19,935 nucleotides of DNA, taken from NCBI GenBank assembly GCA_049964795.1, contig JBMFWY010000014.1, forward strand, positions 1 to 19,935, read 5' to 3'. Both the position numbers and the translations under genes were made by a program. Source of the DNA: Candidatus Micrarchaeia archaeon. GTDB taxonomy: Archaea > Micrarchaeota > Micrarchaeia > Micrarchaeales > Micrarchaeaceae. Of the stretch, positions 8,607 through 19,701 are shown one piece after another; the stretch's first letter is position 1; each line of letters starts with the position of its first letter. Under the pieces are notes generated by a model, which searched no databases, was not told where the DNA came from, and saw only the letters and a program-made list of their open reading frames with translations.

Positions 8607-10334
8607 TCACCATGCCTCTATTGCGCCATCAAGTTCAGGAAGGCTGCTGGCTGCCAGCACTTTTACCTTTTCAATTGCAAAATAGTTTGAATAGAAGTTG
8701 AATGCGCCGTCATTTACAACTATTATCACATGGTCGAAATCTTTTAGCCTGCGCTTTATCATTGAGGAAGTAGATGATACGGACTTCCTTCCGGTTTCAT
8801 ACTCTATCGCTATTTTTCTTCCTTCTGCATATGCGACTAAATCAGGGCCATTGCTGTTGTCTATTATTATAGACTTTATGCTACTTTGTTCGAGCTTTTG
8901 AAAGATCTTCTTTACCATCACTTCGTGCTCTATGCTGAGGGACTTGTTCTTTTTCATGACCCAGCGCTCCTGCTTGTCATACTCTCCAAGCTTGAGTTCC
9001 TCAACATTTTCATACTCTTCTCCATCACAAGCGAGCAGAGGCTTGCTGGAAACGAGAATTGCTGGTTTTGCGTGTACAATTTGCGCCTGCCCGTCCTTGG
9101 AAAAGACGCGAGGAGTCTCTATTACGCTTGGCTCCCTTATGTTATAGCTGATTGCTATTGCTTCATTTTTCCTGAGCCTGCGCAGCATCTTCTTAACCTC
9201 GAATGCACGCTCCCCGATTCCGGAAGAAAATATATTAGAAATGTAGTTTACCTCCTGCGGCTCCCTGGAATAAAAACTGATGAATGTGCTTGAATTTGCT
9301 ATTATTTCGCGCGGAAGAGAGCTTGCCATGTGCGTGGCAAGTATCACCCCTACCCCGTACTTCCTTCCCTCCTGCATAAGCTTCTTCACTATTTGAGAAT
9401 CTGAATCGTTTATTATAAACTGCGCCTCGTCTATTACTATATAAAGGCTTACACCTTTACCTATTCCGTGCATTTTCATGCTAGTGTAAATTCTGCGGAG
9501 AAGCTCGTTGATATAAATTATTTGCGCTTCTGCGCTTCTTATGCCGGCGAGGGAGAATGAGCTTATGCCGTTGCGCAACGCCTCAACATCAAGCTCGCCT
9601 TCGGAGAGAGGCTGCAAGGACAGAGAAGAAAGCTTGCTGCGCAGATGTGCCAGGCTGCTCCTTTCAGAGCTATTCCTTGAATTCGCTATGAAAATGCTAA
9701 GCTCTCCGAGCACATCAGACATAGAAGGCGGTTTTTGAAGCTGCATGTCATTGCGCGATGCTGCGCCGTGCCTTCTGTATGCATACCACATGCATTCGGC
9801 AAGCTTCTGGGATTGTACGTACCCTAGAGAGTACACGCTTTTGAAAAGTTGCGAGAGTTCTGCTATCCTATCCCCTACCGTGCTGCCGTCAAGCGAGAAT
9901 ATGTTTATGCCATGACGCGAGGAATCTATTACCCTGCCCCCAAGAGAGAAAACTGCCTCCTCGTGCTCGTTGTGCGCATCGAAGATTATTGCGGGCTTGT
10001 ACGCCGCGCCTATGTCCTTTATCATGCTCCTCAAAAGCGTGCTTTTGCCCTGCCCGCTCATGCCAAATATCAATATGTGAGGATTTGCTTCGGCAGATGG
10101 TATTATAATAGCTTTGCCATGCCTTTTTTTCCATCTTATAGTAGGTTGTATTTCTATAGCGCCTTTGAAGCTGCTTATTGAAACTGTGTTTGAAAGCGTG
10201 TATCTAAAGCGACCAATTTGCAGGAGCAGCTCATTTTCCTTTGCCTTTGGCTTTTCTGCAATCTCGGCAATTCGAGAAAAAAAGCTTGCGAAAGGCTTAA
10301 AGGCGTTTCCAAAAGCGTCAATTATATAATTCAT
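8607..10334 (-). CDS. HerA/VirB4-like P-loop ATPase with C-terminal PD-(D/E)XK-like domain
   Basis: HILIFGMSGQGKS (Walker A), IFDAHNEH, IVIDEAQ (Walker B), EGRKYG and ATH. The C-terminus has EH..GPDL..IAIEYETG. Start moved to ATG 10334, preceded by GGTG RBS, because the longer ORF overlaps the tRNA. Confidence 0.82.
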   Translation of the reverse strand: MNYIIDAFGNAFKPFASFFSRIAEIAEKPKAKENELLLQIGRFRYTLSNTVSISSFKGAIEIQPTIRWKKRHGKAIIIPSAEANPHILIFGMSGQGKSTLLRSMIKDIGAAYKPAIIFDAHNEHEEAVFSLGGRVIDSSRHGINIFSLDGSTVGDRIAELSQLFKSVYSLGYVQSQKLAECMWYAYRRHGAASRNDMQLQKPPSMSDVLGELSIFIANSRNSSERSSLAHLRSKLSSLSLQPLSEGELDVEALRNGISSFSLAGIRSAEAQIIYINELLRRIYTSMKMHGIGKGVSLYIVIDEAQFIINDSDSQIVKKLMQEGRKYGVGVILATHMASSLPREIIANSSTFISFYSREPQEVNYISNIFSSGIGERAFEVKKMLRRLRKNEAIAISYNIREPSVIETPRVFSKDGQAQIVHAKPAILVSSKPLLACDGEEYENVEELKLGEYDKQERWVMKKNKSLSIEHEVMVKKIFQKLEQSSIKSIIIDNSNGPDLVAYAEGRKIAIEYETGRKSVSSTSSMIKRRLKDFDHVIIVVNDGAFNFYSNYFAIEKVKVLAASSLPELDGAIEAW

Positions 10335-10401
10335 TACACCACCAATATTTATGCAGCGGCAGATATGCCGCGAAGAGCAGGTCTTTGAAAGACAAAGCAA
10401 T

Positions 10402-10521
10402 GCCAGGGTGGCGGAAACTGGTAACGCGCCGGTCTTGAGATTTCTCAAGAGCTGATTAATGATGCAAAACAAGGCAACCGGTTCCCTCTGGGAATTTAGG
10501 GTTCAAATCCCTACCCTGGCG
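10402..10521 (+). tRNA. tRNA-Ser(TGA) with 36-nt intron at 37/38 (intron 10440-10475)
   Basis: Acceptor GCCAGGG/CCCTGGC; anticodon stem CCGGT/ACCGG; anticodon TGA at 10436-10438; long variable arm TTCCC-TCT-GGGAA; T arm TAGGG-TTCAAAT-CCCTA; discriminator G. BHB central helix is CTTG/CAAG with 3-nt bulges. Confidence 0.93.
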
Positions 10522-10591: not shown

Positions 10592-11362
10592 ATGAGAATA
10601 ATTTCTTTGAACTTGTGGGGCGGAAGGGTATATGGCAAGCTTGCTAAATTTCTTGAGAACGAGAAAAAGGACGTAGATATCTTCTGTTTCCAAGAGGTTT
10701 TAGACACTAGCACCAAAGCCAGCGGAGAAGCCAAAGCTATCAAGCAATTATACCAAGGAACAGAGTTTGAGGAAGTTCAGGACTTGTATAGTAGATTAGA
10801 ACGTATACTGACAGGCTTCCATGGTTTTCTTTCGGAGTCTTATAGTGAAAGTTCCGAAAAGCTGGCGATGTTTATAAGGAATAGAATAGATGCAGAAGTG
10901 CTGACTGATTGGGCGCACAGACAGATTAGAGTAATATACAAAGGAAAGCCTTTCAAGGTAGGCAGCATTATACAATATGCAAAAATTTCAGATGGTAGTA
11001 AGGCATATTTTATAGCAAATGTTCATGGGCTATGGCAAGGCGGAGGAAAGGGTGATACGCCAGAAAGGATAGAGCAATCAAAAAATATTTTAAGGATAAT
11101 GTCAGGTTTTGGCGACCGCAAGGTTTTATGTGGAGATTTTAACCTTGACCTATCTACAGAGAGTGTGCGTATGCTTGAGCAAGAGATGAAAAACTTAGTG
11201 AAAGAATTCAAGGTAACTTCTACGCGTAGTGCTCTTGCACCATCAAGTAAAGGCAAGTTCGCAGATTATATATTTACCTCGGATAAAATAAGGGTATACA
11301 AATTCGATGTTCTAAATGATGTAGTGTCAGATCATCTGTCGTTATATTTAGATTTTAAATGA
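10592..11362 (+). CDS. Endonuclease/exonuclease/phosphatase (EEP) family protein
   Basis: Motifs MRIISLN, DIFCFQEV, NVH, LCGDFN, DYIF and VSDH. Confidence 0.9.
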   Translation: MRIISLNLWGGRVYGKLAKFLENEKKDVDIFCFQEVLDTSTKASGEAKAIKQLYQGTEFEEVQDLYSRLERILTGFHGFLSESYSESSEKLAMFIRNRIDAEVLTDWAHRQIRVIYKGKPFKVGSIIQYAKISDGSKAYFIANVHGLWQGGGKGDTPERIEQSKNILRIMSGFGDRKVLCGDFNLDLSTESVRMLEQEMKNLVKEFKVTSTRSALAPSSKGKFADYIFTSDKIRVYKFDVLNDVVSDHLSLYLDFK

Positions 11363-11730: not shown

Positions 11731-12282
11731 ATGGGTAAAGTATTCATTGGCAACGAAACGAGCATTGCTGTATATCTTGCAAGCCCCCTGGGTTTTACGG
11801 AAGAAGGCAGGACATACATAAAGAATGTGCTGATACCAAAGGTGAGCAAAATCGAAAGCGTTTTGGTGATAGACCCGTGGTCTTCTATTTTGCGCATGGA
11901 GGAAAGCCAAATAATGCAAATGGGCATACTTAACGCACAAGAGGCTTCTAAGATAGGAAAAATGAATTTTGAATCGATAAGAAGGGCAGATATAATACTC
12001 GCAAACCTAAATGGTTCTGATCCAGATAGCGGTACGTGCATAGAAATAGGATATGCCTATGCTTTGGGCAAGACCGTAATAGGATATAGGACTGATTTTA
12101 GGCGCATGGGCGATTCCACCTCAGGAATAAACATGCAAGTAGAGGCGGCAGTGGTGGGCTCTGGCGGCAAATTATTCGGCACGCTTGACGAAGCGTTGGC
12201 TTTCCTGAAAGGGCTGGTTGCAGATGAAGTAGACCAGAAACTATCAAAGCGCCAAGGCACAAGGCTGCGCAGCAAAGGCTAG
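11731..12282 (+). CDS. Nucleoside 2-deoxyribosyltransferase / nucleotide N-glycosidase family protein
   Basis: Motifs VYLASPLGF and DPDSGTCIEIGYAYALGK..IGYRTDFR, with the catalytic Glu present. Confidence 0.88.
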   Translation: MGKVFIGNETSIAVYLASPLGFTEEGRTYIKNVLIPKVSKIESVLVIDPWSSILRMEESQIMQMGILNAQEASKIGKMNFESIRRADIILANLNGSDPDSGTCIEIGYAYALGKTVIGYRTDFRRMGDSTSGINMQVEAAVVGSGGKLFGTLDEALAFLKGLVADEVDQKLSKRQGTRLRSKG

Positions 12283-12564
12283 ATATTTGTGATGAAGAAG
12301 CATAGGAAAGGCTTTACCGAAAAGATTAATCTTTGTTTATAAAACCAGGGCAAATCAGCAAAGTTACATAGATGGCTTTGTTCATAAACTCCCACTTTAT
12401 GGATAGAATATAGAGGTTATGGACAGATTTGGAGTTTTTAAACAAGGCTTACATAGATAAAAGGTATAAATACCGGTATATTCAATTATTTGACAGGGCA
12501 AGAAATGCTATAACCGTTTCGCTACAGAAGCTTTATGATACGTGCATGTTGTGGGTGGAGGTGA

Positions 12565-13596
12565 ATGGCTAGCAAGGAGAAAGAGTTTGTATCTGGAAGG
12601 GGTGTATTCAGGCAGGAGCTTTACGATGCTGCGGAGAGTATAGAACTGATGGCTGAAGATGTAGAGATAGATTATGTAAGGCTATTAGACTTCGCTAAGG
12701 AGCATGCTTTTTCAGAAGTTTCATTGCCAAAGTGGGATCTGCCTGTCTTCCTAGAAAAGGCAGACGATGCTACGCTTGGCTTCATGATCCTTGGAAACAC
12801 CCAGAACTTCGCATTTACTGATTTTATAACTAAGAAGAAGTACTTCACAGATTACGAAGGCAGCAATTATTCTGGCGCGATGGGGATGTGGGCATCGCTT
12901 AAGAAAGCAATAGAGAAGGGCGTGCCTTTGCTTGATGGAGGGTACCTTTCAACTATAACATACAAGGAACTTGAAAGTATCTACAATGGAAAGTCAAAGA
13001 TACCCATGCTGCAAGATAGATTAGAAATACTCAATGAAGTTGGCGACGTCCTTTGCAAGAGATATGAGGGCAGGTTTCACAATATAGTAGCGGGCTATGA
13101 GGAAGGCAAAGCAAGGATGTTTGACAATGGCAAAGGATTCGTGGAGAGGCTAATTTCAGATTTCCCTTCGTTTAGGGATGAGAGTGAGTATAAGGGGATA
13201 AAAATAAGATTTGAGAAGAGGGCACAACTCGCCGCAGGAATGATCTATGAAAAGTTTAAGGGGCTAGGAAAAAAGGTGTTTGCGGAAGGCGAGGAAACAA
13301 AACTTTCTGTGTTCCCCGATTACGAGTTGCCAAAGGCGCTTAGGTCCATAGGTATATTTAAATATAGCAATAAATTGCAAGAGGAGATAGATGAAGGAGT
13401 GCCTCTAAAAAGCGGCGGAAACGAAGAGGTAGAATTGCGCGCTGCGACAGTGTACGTTGCTGACCTTCTTGAGGAAACAATAAAGCATTTCAACCCCGGC
13501 TCAAAGATAAACCAGTTATGGATAGACTACTTACTATGGTCTGCAGGCAGGAATAGCCCTGGAAATTCCCATCTTACTATAACTACGGCTTACTAA
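12565..13596 (+). CDS. Queuosine salvage protein / Q-nucleotide N-glycosylase (QNG1, DUF2419) homologue
   Basis: Motifs NFAF, FPSFRD, FEKRAQL, FPDYELP, EVELRA, DYLLW and terminal HLTITTAY follow the order seen in the QNG1 family. GGAGGTGA RBS precedes the start. Confidence 0.85.
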   Translation: MASKEKEFVSGRGVFRQELYDAAESIELMAEDVEIDYVRLLDFAKEHAFSEVSLPKWDLPVFLEKADDATLGFMILGNTQNFAFTDFITKKKYFTDYEGSNYSGAMGMWASLKKAIEKGVPLLDGGYLSTITYKELESIYNGKSKIPMLQDRLEILNEVGDVLCKRYEGRFHNIVAGYEEGKARMFDNGKGFVERLISDFPSFRDESEYKGIKIRFEKRAQLAAGMIYEKFKGLGKKVFAEGEETKLSVFPDYELPKALRSIGIFKYSNKLQEEIDEGVPLKSGGNEEVELRAATVYVADLLEETIKHFNPGSKINQLWIDYLLWSAGRNSPGNSHLTITTAY

Positions 13597-17553: not shown

Positions 17554-18126
17554 ATGGAAATCAATGAAATAGACGCTTATCTCAAAGAAGGGGCAAGAGT
17601 CCGCCTAAACATAGACAAGGATTCTGTATATAACCTTGGCAATATGATATATGAAAGCATGCAAAAAGGCGGCAAGCTTCTTGTTATGGGAAACGGAGGC
17701 TCTGCGGCCGACGCACAGCATATTGCAGCTGAATTTGTTGGGAAGTTCTTTGCGGAACGACGCGCCCTTCCTGCGATTGCACTGCACACCAACACTTCTT
17801 CGCTTACTGCAATTGCAAACGACTATACCTATGACGAGGTATTTTCCAGGCAGATAGAGGCTTTCGCAAGATCCGGAGATGTGGTAATAGGCATATCTAC
17901 TAGCGGCAACTCAAAAAACGTGCTTAAAGCAATAGAGAAGGCTAACGCTCTTGGCTGCCTTACTGTTGCACTTACTGGCAAATCGGGAGGGAAATTAAAA
18001 GATCTTGCGCGAATTACAATAAGGGCAGACAGCGACTCGACGCCAATAATCCAGGAAGCACATATAACAATAGGCCATATAATATCAAAAATAGTAGAAG
18101 ACAGAGTAATAAAAGAGGGCAAGTGA
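17554..18126 (+). CDS. gmhA: D-sedoheptulose-7-phosphate isomerase
   Basis: Motifs GNGGSAADAQHIAAE, TAIAND, ISTSGNS and IQEAH; AGGTGA RBS. Confidence 0.95.
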   Translation: MEINEIDAYLKEGARVRLNIDKDSVYNLGNMIYESMQKGGKLLVMGNGGSAADAQHIAAEFVGKFFAERRALPAIALHTNTSSLTAIANDYTYDEVFSRQIEAFARSGDVVIGISTSGNSKNVLKAIEKANALGCLTVALTGKSGGKLKDLARITIRADSDSTPIIQEAHITIGHIISKIVEDRVIKEGK

Positions 18127-18130
18127 TGCC

Positions 18131-18694
18131 ATGAAGCCTGCGCTCTTCATAGACCGCGATGGCACTATAAATATGGATTGCCCCTACTGCAAAAGCGCTT
18201 CAGAAATAAAAATCTACAATGATGTATATGCTCCGCTTGCTGAACTTTGCAAGAATTTCTACATAATAATAGTGACGAACCAGTCAGGCATTGCAAGAGG
18301 CTACTTCTCTGAAAATGATCTCGAAGCTATGCATTCAAAAATAAAGAAGCTAGTTGCAAGGCACGGTGGCAGGATAGACGCAGTTTATTACTGCCCGGAT
18401 CTCCCAAAAAGTGAATCTCCGTGCAGAAAGCCCAATACAGGCATGATTGAAAAGGCACTGCGCGACTTCAACTTTGACATAGACTTAAGTAAGTCTTTTG
18501 TTATAGGAAACGATGATAAGGACATTGAGATGGCGAGGCGCCTTAGTATAAAATCAATCCTAGTTGATAGAGCTTCAACTTCAAGCACTGCAGCTGATCG
18601 CGACTCTCATAGTACTGCTCCTGCAGCCTGCCCAGACTTTGTTGCAAAAGATTTTAAGGATGTGTTGGAAATCATAAAAAGGGTGTTTCGGTGA
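18131..18694 (+). CDS. gmhB: Heptose-1,7-bisphosphate phosphatase (HAD IIIA)
   Basis: Motifs FIDRDGTIN, VTNQSGIARG and CRKP; lies between gmhA and hddA. Confidence 0.9.
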   Translation: MKPALFIDRDGTINMDCPYCKSASEIKIYNDVYAPLAELCKNFYIIIVTNQSGIARGYFSENDLEAMHSKIKKLVARHGGRIDAVYYCPDLPKSESPCRKPNTGMIEKALRDFNFDIDLSKSFVIGNDDKDIEMARRLSIKSILVDRASTSSTAADRDSHSTAPAACPDFVAKDFKDVLEIIKRVFR

Positions 18695-19701
18695 ACTCAG
18701 GTTCCGACTTTTCGCTTGTGACTACCAAGACGCCCCTGCGCATTACCTTCACTGGTGGAGGCACTGACTTAATGGACTACTATAGAAAGCACGGGCCTGG
18801 GGCTGTGGTTTCTTCGACCATTAACAGGTATATTTACGTGACTGTCGCCAGAAACTTCTATCGCGACGAAATCCGTGTCTCATACTCTAAAAGCGAGGAC
18901 AAGCTCAAGAGCATTGATGAGATCCAGCATCCTAGCGTAAGAGAGGCGCTGCGATTCCTTGGAATAAAAGGGGGCTTGCAAATCGTAAGCATAACCGAAA
19001 TTCCTTCCAAAGGCACAGGGCTAGGGTCCAGCAGCAGCTTTCTTGTAGGCTTACTTTATGCTTTGCACACATGGCTTGGGGAAGCCGCAACGCAGGAGCA
19101 GCTCGCAAGCGAGGCTTTCCATATAGAGCGCGAAGTGCTGCGCGAGGAGGGAGGCAAGCAAGACCAGTATATTGCGGCTTATGGAGGCATAAGGCTCATG
19201 GAGTTCAACAGTGATGAAAGCGTGTCGATGAAGCCCATAGTGCTGAAGGAAGATGCCCGTGAAATACTGCAAGACAGCTTGCTCATGCTGTATACAGGCA
19301 AGGAGAGAAGCTCTTCTGAAATACACAAGGAGCAAGCGAAGAGCATTGAGGATAAGCTTGAAGCTTATGGGGAGATGCGCAAGCTTGCTTATGAGACGTA
19401 TAGCGCAATAGCAAAGTGCGACATAGCTGAGCTGGGAGCTCTCATGGATACCAACTGGAAGCTAAAGAAGAAGCTCAGCAATGGCATAAGCGATCCGTTG
19501 ATTGACTCGTATTATGAAAAGGCAATAAAATCCGGAGCTTTAGGAGGCAAGCTGATGGGCGCAGGCGGAGGTGGTTTTCTGCTGTTTGTCGCTCCAAAAG
19601 AAAGGCACAAAGCTATAGAAGATGCGCTCGGGCTAAGGCAGGAGCCTTTCAAGCTAGACCCGCTTGGCTCAAGAATAATAAATATGGAAGGGCTTGCATG
19701 A
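18691..19701 (+). CDS. hddA: D-glycero-alpha-D-manno-heptose-7-phosphate kinase (GHMP)
   Basis: Motifs TPLRITFTGGGTD, GTGLGSSS, GGKQDQY and GKLMGAGGGGF; GTGA overlap with gmhB. Confidence 0.9.
   Translation: MNSGSDFSLVTTKTPLRITFTGGGTDLMDYYRKHGPGAVVSSTINRYIYVTVARNFYRDEIRVSYSKSEDKLKSIDEIQHPSVREALRFLGIKGGLQIVSITEIPSKGTGLGSSSSFLVGLLYALHTWLGEAATQEQLASEAFHIEREVLREEGGKQDQYIAAYGGIRLMEFNSDESVSMKPIVLKEDAREILQDSLLMLYTGKERSSSEIHKEQAKSIEDKLEAYGEMRKLAYETYSAIAKCDIAELGALMDTNWKLKKKLSNGISDPLIDSYYEKAIKSGALGGKLMGAGGGGFLLFVAPKERHKAIEDALGLRQEPFKLDPLGSRIINMEGLA

Follow-up and report, generated by a model that had tools for sequence, protein, structure and literature searches.

A Qng1-family protein with substituted pocket residues in an archaeal genome without detected tRNA-guanine transglycosylase

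Introduction

Why would an archaeon maintain an intact homologue of a queuine-salvage enzyme when the enzyme that would use the queuine is not detected in its lineage? The question is raised by a gene for a 343-aa Qng1-family protein in a 19,935-nt stretch of DNA (the window, meaning the whole stretch analysed), which is contig JBMFWY010000014.1 of assembly GCA_049964795.1, from a Candidatus Micrarchaeia archaeon (here contig C14 of genome G000). Qng1/QNG1 (DUF2419, C9orf64) is the queuosine-5'-monophosphate N-glycosidase of Sphaerobacter thermophilus (StQng1), human and S. pombe (Hung et al. 2023, PMC9881137), and the sole role shown for the family is to feed queuine to tRNA-guanine transglycosylase (TGT). 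The substrate of the window protein, if determined, would show either 7-deazaguanine nucleotide metabolism beyond tRNA modification or a second specificity within the family. The case is also relevant to how DPANN archaea with a wholly imported nucleotide supply handle modified nucleotides.

We tentatively read the protein as an active, TGT-independent N-glycosidase that would destroy a modified nucleotide, probably a 7-deazaguanine one, derived from scavenged nucleic acid, and give this reading somewhat less than an even chance. NCBI already labels such archaeal proteins 'queuosine salvage family protein'; a literature search, whose reach excluded supplements and the 2014 DUF2419 distribution paper, found no paper on Qng1/DUF2419 in archaea.

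A full-length Qng1-family member

The open reading frame (ORF) comprises 343 open codons from ATG to TAA, and an in-frame TGA immediately 5' of position 12565 makes that position the earliest possible start. The gene and the candidate signals that precede it are as follows:

12465..12472, + strand: TATA-box-like string TATAAATA, ~100 nt 5' of the ATG (candidate, read from the sequence)
12557..12564, + strand: Shine-Dalgarno-like GGAGGTGA, touching the ATG with zero spacer (candidate)
12565..13596, + strand: coding sequence of the Qng1-family (PF10343) N-glycosidase homologue, 343 aa, stop included (from ORF, Pfam, phmmer and AlphaFold/Foldseek)

The AGGTGA within GGAGGTGA pairs with UCACCU near the 3' end of the G000 small-subunit (SSU) rRNA. 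That 3' end reads GATCACCTTTAC, which is not the usual CCTCC tail.

The product genuinely belongs to the Qng1 family. Pfam PF10343 (Q_salvage) matches residues 65-331 along profile positions 5-268 of 285 (E 5.1e-56, 190.8 bits, cut-off 25), a six-frame search of G000 recovers the gene as well, and phmmer retrieves StQng1 at E 2e-46 and human QNG1 at E 1.6e-36. An AlphaFold2 model built with 62 homologues as input (mean pLDDT 96, pTM 0.93) has a two-lobe fold resembling helix-hairpin-helix (HhH) glycosylases, with a C-terminal tail and strand pairs at the positions of Qng1-specific hairpins. The top 10 Foldseek matches of this model are all Qng1/QNG1 chains, with TM-scores of 0.82-0.92 (StQng1 0.85-0.92; human QNG1 0.82-0.83), and the next fold in the ranking, the archaeal 8-oxoguanine glycosylase AGOG, scores 0.43-0.56. 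The original prediction of a full-length Qng1/DUF2419 homologue, made from five motifs, is borne out by the profile search and the structural match, and all five motifs are present in the translation. Judged from alignment and model, the protein is almost certainly an N-glycosidase.

An N-glycosidase of this fold could also act on DNA, as an HhH-superfamily DNA glycosylase in base excision repair. The HhH Lys/Asp pair is common to the window protein, AGOG and OGG1 (PMC9881137), and 1.2 kb upstream there is a gene for an ExoIII-like nuclease. The model nevertheless fits Qng1 far better than AGOG, and has a C-terminal tail and strand pairs at the alignment-placed Qng1-specific beta-hairpins (94-103 and 206-215), elements that block the DNA cleft in Qng1 (PMC9881137). 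StQng1 and human QNG1 also excised no bases from tRNA (PMC9881137), and a repair role appears extremely improbable.

The host is a DPANN archaeon, most likely of the Micrarchaeota, because its SSU rRNA, on contig C1, scores best against the archaeal model RF01959 (1313 bits) and the nearest named homologues of the 343-aa protein come from metagenome-assembled genomes titled Micrarchaeota or Micrarchaeaceae. An archaeal host, as originally supposed, is confirmed by the rRNA. The assembly holds 724,721 bases in 34 contigs and is 91.56% complete and 2.19% contaminated. Two side observations concern its RNA genes. The SSU rRNA match (G000:C1:39215-41222) covers 2008 bases against a 1478-position model, leaving ~530 extra bases as insertions or introns. 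ARAGORN finds only 22 tRNA genes, with tRNA-Tyr not found, in this 91.6% complete genome; the remaining tRNA genes are probably intron-containing or split and missed by the default scan.

Retained catalytic residues and a substituted pocket

Residues were equated with those of StQng1 through a HMMER alignment read against the published structure description (PMC9881137), rather than through superposition. The motifs fall at KRAQ 218-221, FPDY 250-253, ELR 290-292, DYLLW 321-325 and H336...Y343, Y343 being the C-terminal residue. Their codons, and those of the altered pocket segment, are as follows:

12877..12891, + strand: A105-M106-G-M-W109; A105/M106 stand for Y93/W94 of the StQng1 cyclopentenediol pocket and W109 for A97
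13216..13227, + strand: K218-R-A-Q221; K218 equals the HhH-motif Lys K199 of StQng1, with K in 261/261 aligned homologues
13318..13323, + strand: D252-Y253, in register with D231 (catalytic Asp) and Y232 (ribose/phosphate Tyr) of StQng1; D in 251/261, Y in 259/261
13525..13551, + strand: D321-Y322-L-L-W325...R329; D321/W325 equal the base anchors D298/W302, Y322 stands for pocket W299 and R329 for phosphate-binding Q306
13570..13593, + strand: H336...Y343 C-terminal tail, equal to H316...Y323 of StQng1 by spacing; H in 256/261, terminal Y in 257/261

By this alignment the catalytic machinery is intact (residues given as StQng1/window). Firstly, the catalytic pair is retained, as HhH Lys K199/K218 and nucleophile Asp D231/D252. 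Secondly, the ribose contacts (F75/F84 and Y232/Y253) and the base anchors (guanine-face D298/D321 and stacking W302/W325) are kept, with aliphatic I203 present as L222. Finally, the triad E267/E288, H316/H336 and C-terminal Y323/Y343 is kept; in StQng1 the carboxylate of the terminal Tyr belongs to the active site (Hung et al. 2023, PMC9881137). Across a 62-sequence alignment K218, Q221, Y253, E288, E290, R292, D321 and Y343 are invariant, and conservation reaches 90% or more at D252, W325 and H336.

The residues that recognise the rest of the substrate are altered. Of the StQng1 pocket for the cyclopentenediol side chain of queuine (W48, Y93, W94, W299, P46 and H53), only P55 and W57 are retained, the other four having changed (H53 to F62, Y93 to A105, W94 to M106 and W299 to Y322). 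Replacement of A97 by W109 shifts a Trp to a new position in the pocket, and the alignment runs without gaps through residues 105-109, between a conserved Y-x-G and ASLK. All three phosphate contacts have changed as well (R80 to K92, K233 to E254 and Q306 to R329), with Y253 (Y232) kept, and the positive charge of this pocket is preserved in a different arrangement. The parts that would read the 7-substituent and the phosphate thus appear to be rebuilt, unlike those of every characterised enzyme.

Such changes feed the main rival reading, in which the enzyme has shifted from 7-deazaguanines to another purine nucleotide or nucleoside, such as damaged or methylated GMP or a deoxynucleotide, and serves general purine handling. 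Four of six residues in the 7-substituent pocket and three of three in the phosphate site are replaced, the window's side of the family tree has no characterised member, no TGT partner is found, and the neighbouring NDT-like and kinase-like genes (see below) concern ordinary nucleosides. Against this shift, the protein retains D321 as guanine-face anchor and L222/W325 as the stacking pair, a hydrophobic aromatic pocket (W57, F62, W109 and Y322) persists rather than collapsing, and the characterised enzymes leave AMP, UMP, CMP and GMP uncut (PMC9881137). We regard the shift as unlikely, while taking it as a serious contender.

Absence of TGT and partner pathways in the window's lineage

The Pfam TGT family (PF01702), which also covers ArcS-like and DpdA-like proteins, has no match in G000 or in any of 41 relatives from the window's genus, family and order; the same model matched 14/14 control genomes, four of them archaeal. 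Across 401 genomes sampled from the window's phylum, Q_salvage occurs in 14 and TGT in 8, with an overlap of 0/14. Two of the 14 holders are single-contig assemblies, G013 (952 kb, 96% complete) and G109 (~0.9 Mb, 95% complete). A tblastn search of G000 that took six bacterial-type DPANN TGTs and a haloarchaeal arcTGT as queries gave no TGT match at E<=1, only flanking non-TGT ORFs being matched. Separately, the three TGT ORFs tested from the eight TGT-positive genomes of this phylum (L019, L021 and L022) are of the bacterial G34 type and not arcTGT.

Archaeosine is usually seen as a hallmark of archaeal tRNA. No arcTGT or ArcS is found in G000 by PF01702, and QueC is not found in G000 or in the same-genus genome G004, three relatives giving only 18-22-bit N-terminal fragments; neither QueD nor QueE nor ArcS was searched for with a model of its own. 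This suggests that the window's Micrarchaeota lineage is without archaeosine. YhhQ/Vut_1 is absent from the five genomes searched (0/5), and G000 yields no PF00156 phosphoribosyltransferase, purine nucleoside phosphorylase or phosphoribosyl pyrophosphate (PRPP) synthase N-domain. With neither a TGT nor a phosphoribosyltransferase found, a freed base could be neither inserted into tRNA nor converted back to a nucleotide. Also not found in G000 are RuBisCO, RpiA and a transketolase N-domain, RpiB and other routes not having been searched.

These results bear directly on canonical salvage, in which the enzyme would feed queuine, preQ or preQ0 to a TGT missed by the assembly or by the searches. 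Feeding TGT is the only role demonstrated for the family (PMC9881137), the genome is only 91.6% complete, and four other DPANN genomes pair a member of the same clade with a bacterial-type Tgt. The absence of TGT from all 41 relatives and all 14 holders, two of them single-contig assemblies, argues in the other direction, together with the negative seven-TGT tblastn and the success of the Pfam model in every control, and leaves canonical salvage very improbable. The original prediction had proposed salvage of preQ0 or the archaeosine base, or else Q-tRNA made through an acquired route. Either route would end with a TGT placing the base in tRNA, of the archaeal type for preQ0 or archaeosine and of the bacterial or eukaryotic type for queuine. 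For the former, as a path into tRNA, neither a TGT nor a QueC is found; the latter is unsupported for the window organism and plausible for four genomes of Woese/Pacearchaeota type, in which a clade member occurs together with a bacterial-type Tgt.

TGT in other holders of the gene

TGT is present in 4/9 of the other DPANN genomes with a clade member, and those four form one subclade (support 99). All seven DPANN TGT ORFs tested are of the bacterial G34 type, scoring 405-478 bits against TIGR00430 (cut-off 306.75) and 137-158 bits against the arcTGT model, under its cut-off of 350. This agrees with Castelle et al. 2021 (PMC8204110), in which 12 DPANN genomes were found to hold QueA, QueH and Tgt. 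Of the five bacterial holders on the window's side of the tree, three Actinomycetota have a TGT, and none is seen in a 0.8 Mb Patescibacterium or a 4.4 Mb Armatimonadetes genome.

A second sample comprised 401 genomes from the DPANN phylum of G404, one of the four TGT-bearing genomes with a clade member. Here Q_salvage occurs in 40 genomes and TGT in 215, and by hand count TGT is present in 19/40 holders and 196/361 non-holders, or 16/31 when holders are restricted to E<=1e-30; these counts carry no statistical test, come from mutually related genomes of completeness not given, and take the family whole rather than sorted by tree side. Six unpublished genomes are among the 215 TGT-positive ones, and none of the six is a Q_salvage holder. 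There is no sign of an association between Q_salvage and TGT in this phylum. As an observation on the TGTs themselves, nearly all of the matches listed score 415-486 bits in frames of ~366-430 aa, resembling the four confirmed bacterial-type Tgt, and such Tgt may be far commoner in this phylum than the 12 genomes reported in 2021.

Family tree, selection and active-site variants

In a quick maximum-likelihood tree of 92 rows, the window protein falls in a 28-row clade (SH-aLRT 99) with Micrarchaeota, Woese-, Pace- and Nanoarchaeota, one Aenigmatarchaeon, Halogeometricum, and single Armatimonadetes and Patescibacteria rows; its sister is a group of 55 Actinomycetota rows. A FastTree tree of 168 rows, from a sample biased to the query's relatives and split at the midpoint without an inferred root, divides into sides of 62 and 106 rows, each with support 99. 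StQng1 and human QNG1 are represented by the proxies P0248 and P0240, which score 296 and 290 bits against the solved chains by PDB phmmer, and both lie on the 62-row side. The window protein lies on the 106-row side, separated from both proxies by the deepest split of the tree. The signature F-K-A-[MFY]-W ... D-Y ... R is typical of that whole side, which spans DPANN archaea, Patescibacteria, Armatimonadota, streamlined Actinomycetota and one haloarchaeon, and for which we found no solved structure and no characterised enzyme in the literature covered.

The 106-row side might form a separate, TGT-independent hydrolase class whose rebuilt pocket serves to destroy 7-deazaguanine or other modified guanine nucleotides from scavenged nucleic acids, with a subgroup (below) that is possibly a non-catalytic binder of the same ligand. 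We hold this wider proposal to be possible, though on the doubtful side.

The Micrarchaeia also contain a second, distant Q_salvage type. Its five sequences (G260, G082, G126, G348 and G261; L007, L010, L011, L014 and L015) fall on the 62-row side and have a pocket signature of their own, D-K-T-W-I ... N-D; TGT is not found in their genomes.

The gene is under purifying selection. Against the 70%-identical copy of G013, the nonsynonymous and synonymous substitution rates (dN and dS) are 0.21 and 1.68 by NG86, with dS near saturation, and the ratio of ~0.12 argues against decay; for the distant copies L008, L003 and L012 the ratio was not computable, dS being saturated.

In one subgroup Asn replaces the nucleophile Asp (D252, StQng1 D231) with every other active-site residue kept. 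It includes G004 (L003), G109 (L012), G336 (L013), P0009-P0011, P0125 and P0136, and one Asn-form cluster alone represents 23 member sequences. An Asp-to-Asn change at the nucleophile position inactivates other HhH glycosylases, and D231N is, by the title of the structure entry, the StQng1 mutant crystallised with queuosine-5'-monophosphate bound. Such proteins may be inactive, may serve as binding proteins, or may be enzymes that act on a labile substrate.

Some of these patterns would suit a horizontally moving passenger without present function, the remnant of an acquired bacterial-type queuosine module. The gene is patchily spread (3/41 relatives and 14/401 genomes of the phylum) in an unconserved context, the copy of same-genus G004 is only 47% identical to the window protein, copies in G158 and G121 are broken or cut, and the Asn-for-Asp subgroup exists. 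The low dN/dS against the G013 copy, even with dS near saturation, tells against a passenger, as do the retention of all catalytic and anchoring residues and the full-length frame with promoter-like and Shine-Dalgarno-like signals, and we consider this explanation improbable. As to the two defective copies, the Q_salvage frame of G158 (C8:10812-11565; L016 and L018) is broken by a TAG, which makes it a pseudogene or a case of read-through, and the G121 copy is cut off at a contig end.

Genomic context

The gene is flanked in the window by several genes whose products resemble nucleases or nucleoside-handling enzymes:

10592-11362: ExoIII-like nuclease gene, 1.2 kb upstream of the Qng1 homologue
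11731-12282: nucleoside 2-deoxyribosyltransferase (NDT)-like gene (PF05014), whose product resembles nucleoside 2-deoxyribosyltransferases in a PDB search
in the window: gene of the PF04008 'adenosine-specific kinase' family, all solved relatives of which bear the name hypothetical
in the window: deoxynucleoside kinase (dNK)/dTMP-kinase-like gene

An inference of function from an operon was considered and rejected, since none of the window neighbours reappears at the loci of G013 or G004 and the NDT-like gene is independent of Q_salvage, occurring in 12/41 relatives irrespective of it. Among 13 other archaeal loci of the clade, a staphylococcal nuclease (SNase)-type gene adjoins the Qng1 homologue in 4/4 loci of the TGT-bearing subclade. 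Neighbours seen at single loci are an NT5C nucleotidase, a cytidine/dCMP deaminase, GTP cyclohydrolase II, a CCA-adding enzyme, Trm1, tRNase Z and a beta-CASP RNase. The context is a recurrent nucleic-acid and nucleotide scavenging theme and not a conserved operon.

Three side observations concern these regions. The SNase homologue is oriented divergently from the Qng1 homologue and lies on the minus strand at ~3000-4080 in L033, L037, L039 and L040 of the Woese/Pacearchaeota subclade. In the window, a HerA/VirB4-like ATPase of 621 aa (8607-10472, - strand) lies directly upstream of the ExoIII-like nuclease gene and those for nucleoside salvage, and scores 51 and 43 bits against the NCBIfam CedB and CedD models of archaeal DNA import, far under their cut-offs. 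Consecutive SIS_2 isomerase-like, HAD phosphatase-like and GHMP kinase genes occupy 17554-19701 (+ strand), and glycosyltransferase genes are found at the opposite end of the window; the trio has the look of a pathway that activates a sugar phosphate, possibly that of a heptose.

Proposed role and points against it

We infer both the identity of the substrate and the benefit to the cell as follows. A Qng1-family N-glycosidase would free the base from a guanine-like nucleoside 5'-monophosphate or its nucleoside, and cleavage would follow Qng1 in relying on the HhH Lys/Asp pair together with the carboxylate of the C-terminus. The likeliest substrate would be a 7-substituted 7-deazaguanine nucleotide of the queuosine, preQ or archaeosine type, which would enter with scavenged host or environmental RNA. 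The role would be breakdown, namely the removal of a modified GMP analogue from a wholly imported nucleotide pool, and not tRNA modification. In favour of this reading stand the family assignment and fold, the kept catalytic residues, the TGT, QueC, YhhQ and phosphoribosyltransferase searches that found nothing in G000, the low dN/dS, the independence of Q_salvage from TGT in the second phylum, the two bacterial holders without TGT and the scavenging theme among neighbouring genes. The earlier proposal that the enzyme acts on host-derived 7-deazaguanine nucleotides may accordingly hold in the form of breakdown; its other part, salvage into tRNA, is unsupported with no TGT found.

Several observations weigh against this reading. 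The changes in four of six pocket residues and in all of the phosphate contacts mean that the substrate may be something other than queuosine, or even lie outside the 7-deazaguanines. The rarity of the gene in the phylum (14/401) makes it dispensable, and the loci of the window, G013 and G004, the three closest in Micrarchaeota, have no neighbours in common. A non-homologous transglycosylase is conceivable in a genome that is 91.6% complete. Lastly, because RpiA, transketolase, PRPP synthase and RuBisCO are not found in G000, there is no evident use for ribose-5-phosphate, which leaves clean-up as the only benefit, itself a conjecture. Recovery of ribose-5-phosphate had been considered as a benefit in its own right, and is weakened by the same absences.

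Comparison with known systems

Characterised Qng1/QNG1 enzymes share with the window protein the Pfam family, the fold (TM 0.82-0.92), the Lys/Asp pair, the ribose and base anchors and the arrangement of the C-terminal Tyr carboxylate. They differ in that the deepest split of the tree lies between them, in the exchange of Y93, W94, W299 and H53 for A, M, Y and F with a Trp at A97, in that of K233 and Q306 for E and R, and in having a TGT partner where G000 has none. As far as alignment and genome searches indicate, the window protein departs from the characterised queuine-salvage enzyme on two counts, its altered specificity pocket and the want of a TGT to partner it.

The bacterial-type queuosine module of DPANN archaea (QueA, QueH and Tgt; PMC8204110) is a precedent for bacterial 7-deazaguanine genes in this group. 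TIGR00430-type Tgt is held by the four Woese/Pacearchaeota-type genomes with a clade member, whereas G000 and the 14 holders of its phylum are without it. The passages of Castelle et al. 2021 (PMC8204110) covered here make no mention of Qng1/DUF2419.

QueK, the Ca2+-dependent queuosine nucleoside hydrolase of C. difficile, likewise frees a 7-deazaguanine base from a riboside, and differs in its unrelated Rossmann-type fold and mechanism and in operating alongside TGT (PMC9881137). AGOG and OGG1 have the two-lobe HhH architecture and the invariant Lys/Asp pair in common with the window protein (PMC9881137). They differ in structure (TM only 0.43-0.56), in the hairpin-position strand pairs and tail of the window model, and in substrate, which for the window protein would be a mononucleotide and not DNA.

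DNPH1-type sanitisers are N-glycosidases of a different fold (PF05014) that destroy a modified nucleoside monophosphate to bar its further use. No DNPH1 entry is among the PDB matches of the window's PF05014 neighbour, and the analogy extends only to the mode of action. If the window's side of the family is indeed a separate enzyme class, it would represent a sanitation step of this type, by which ultra-small symbionts dependent on import for all of their nucleotides would deal with the modified ones.

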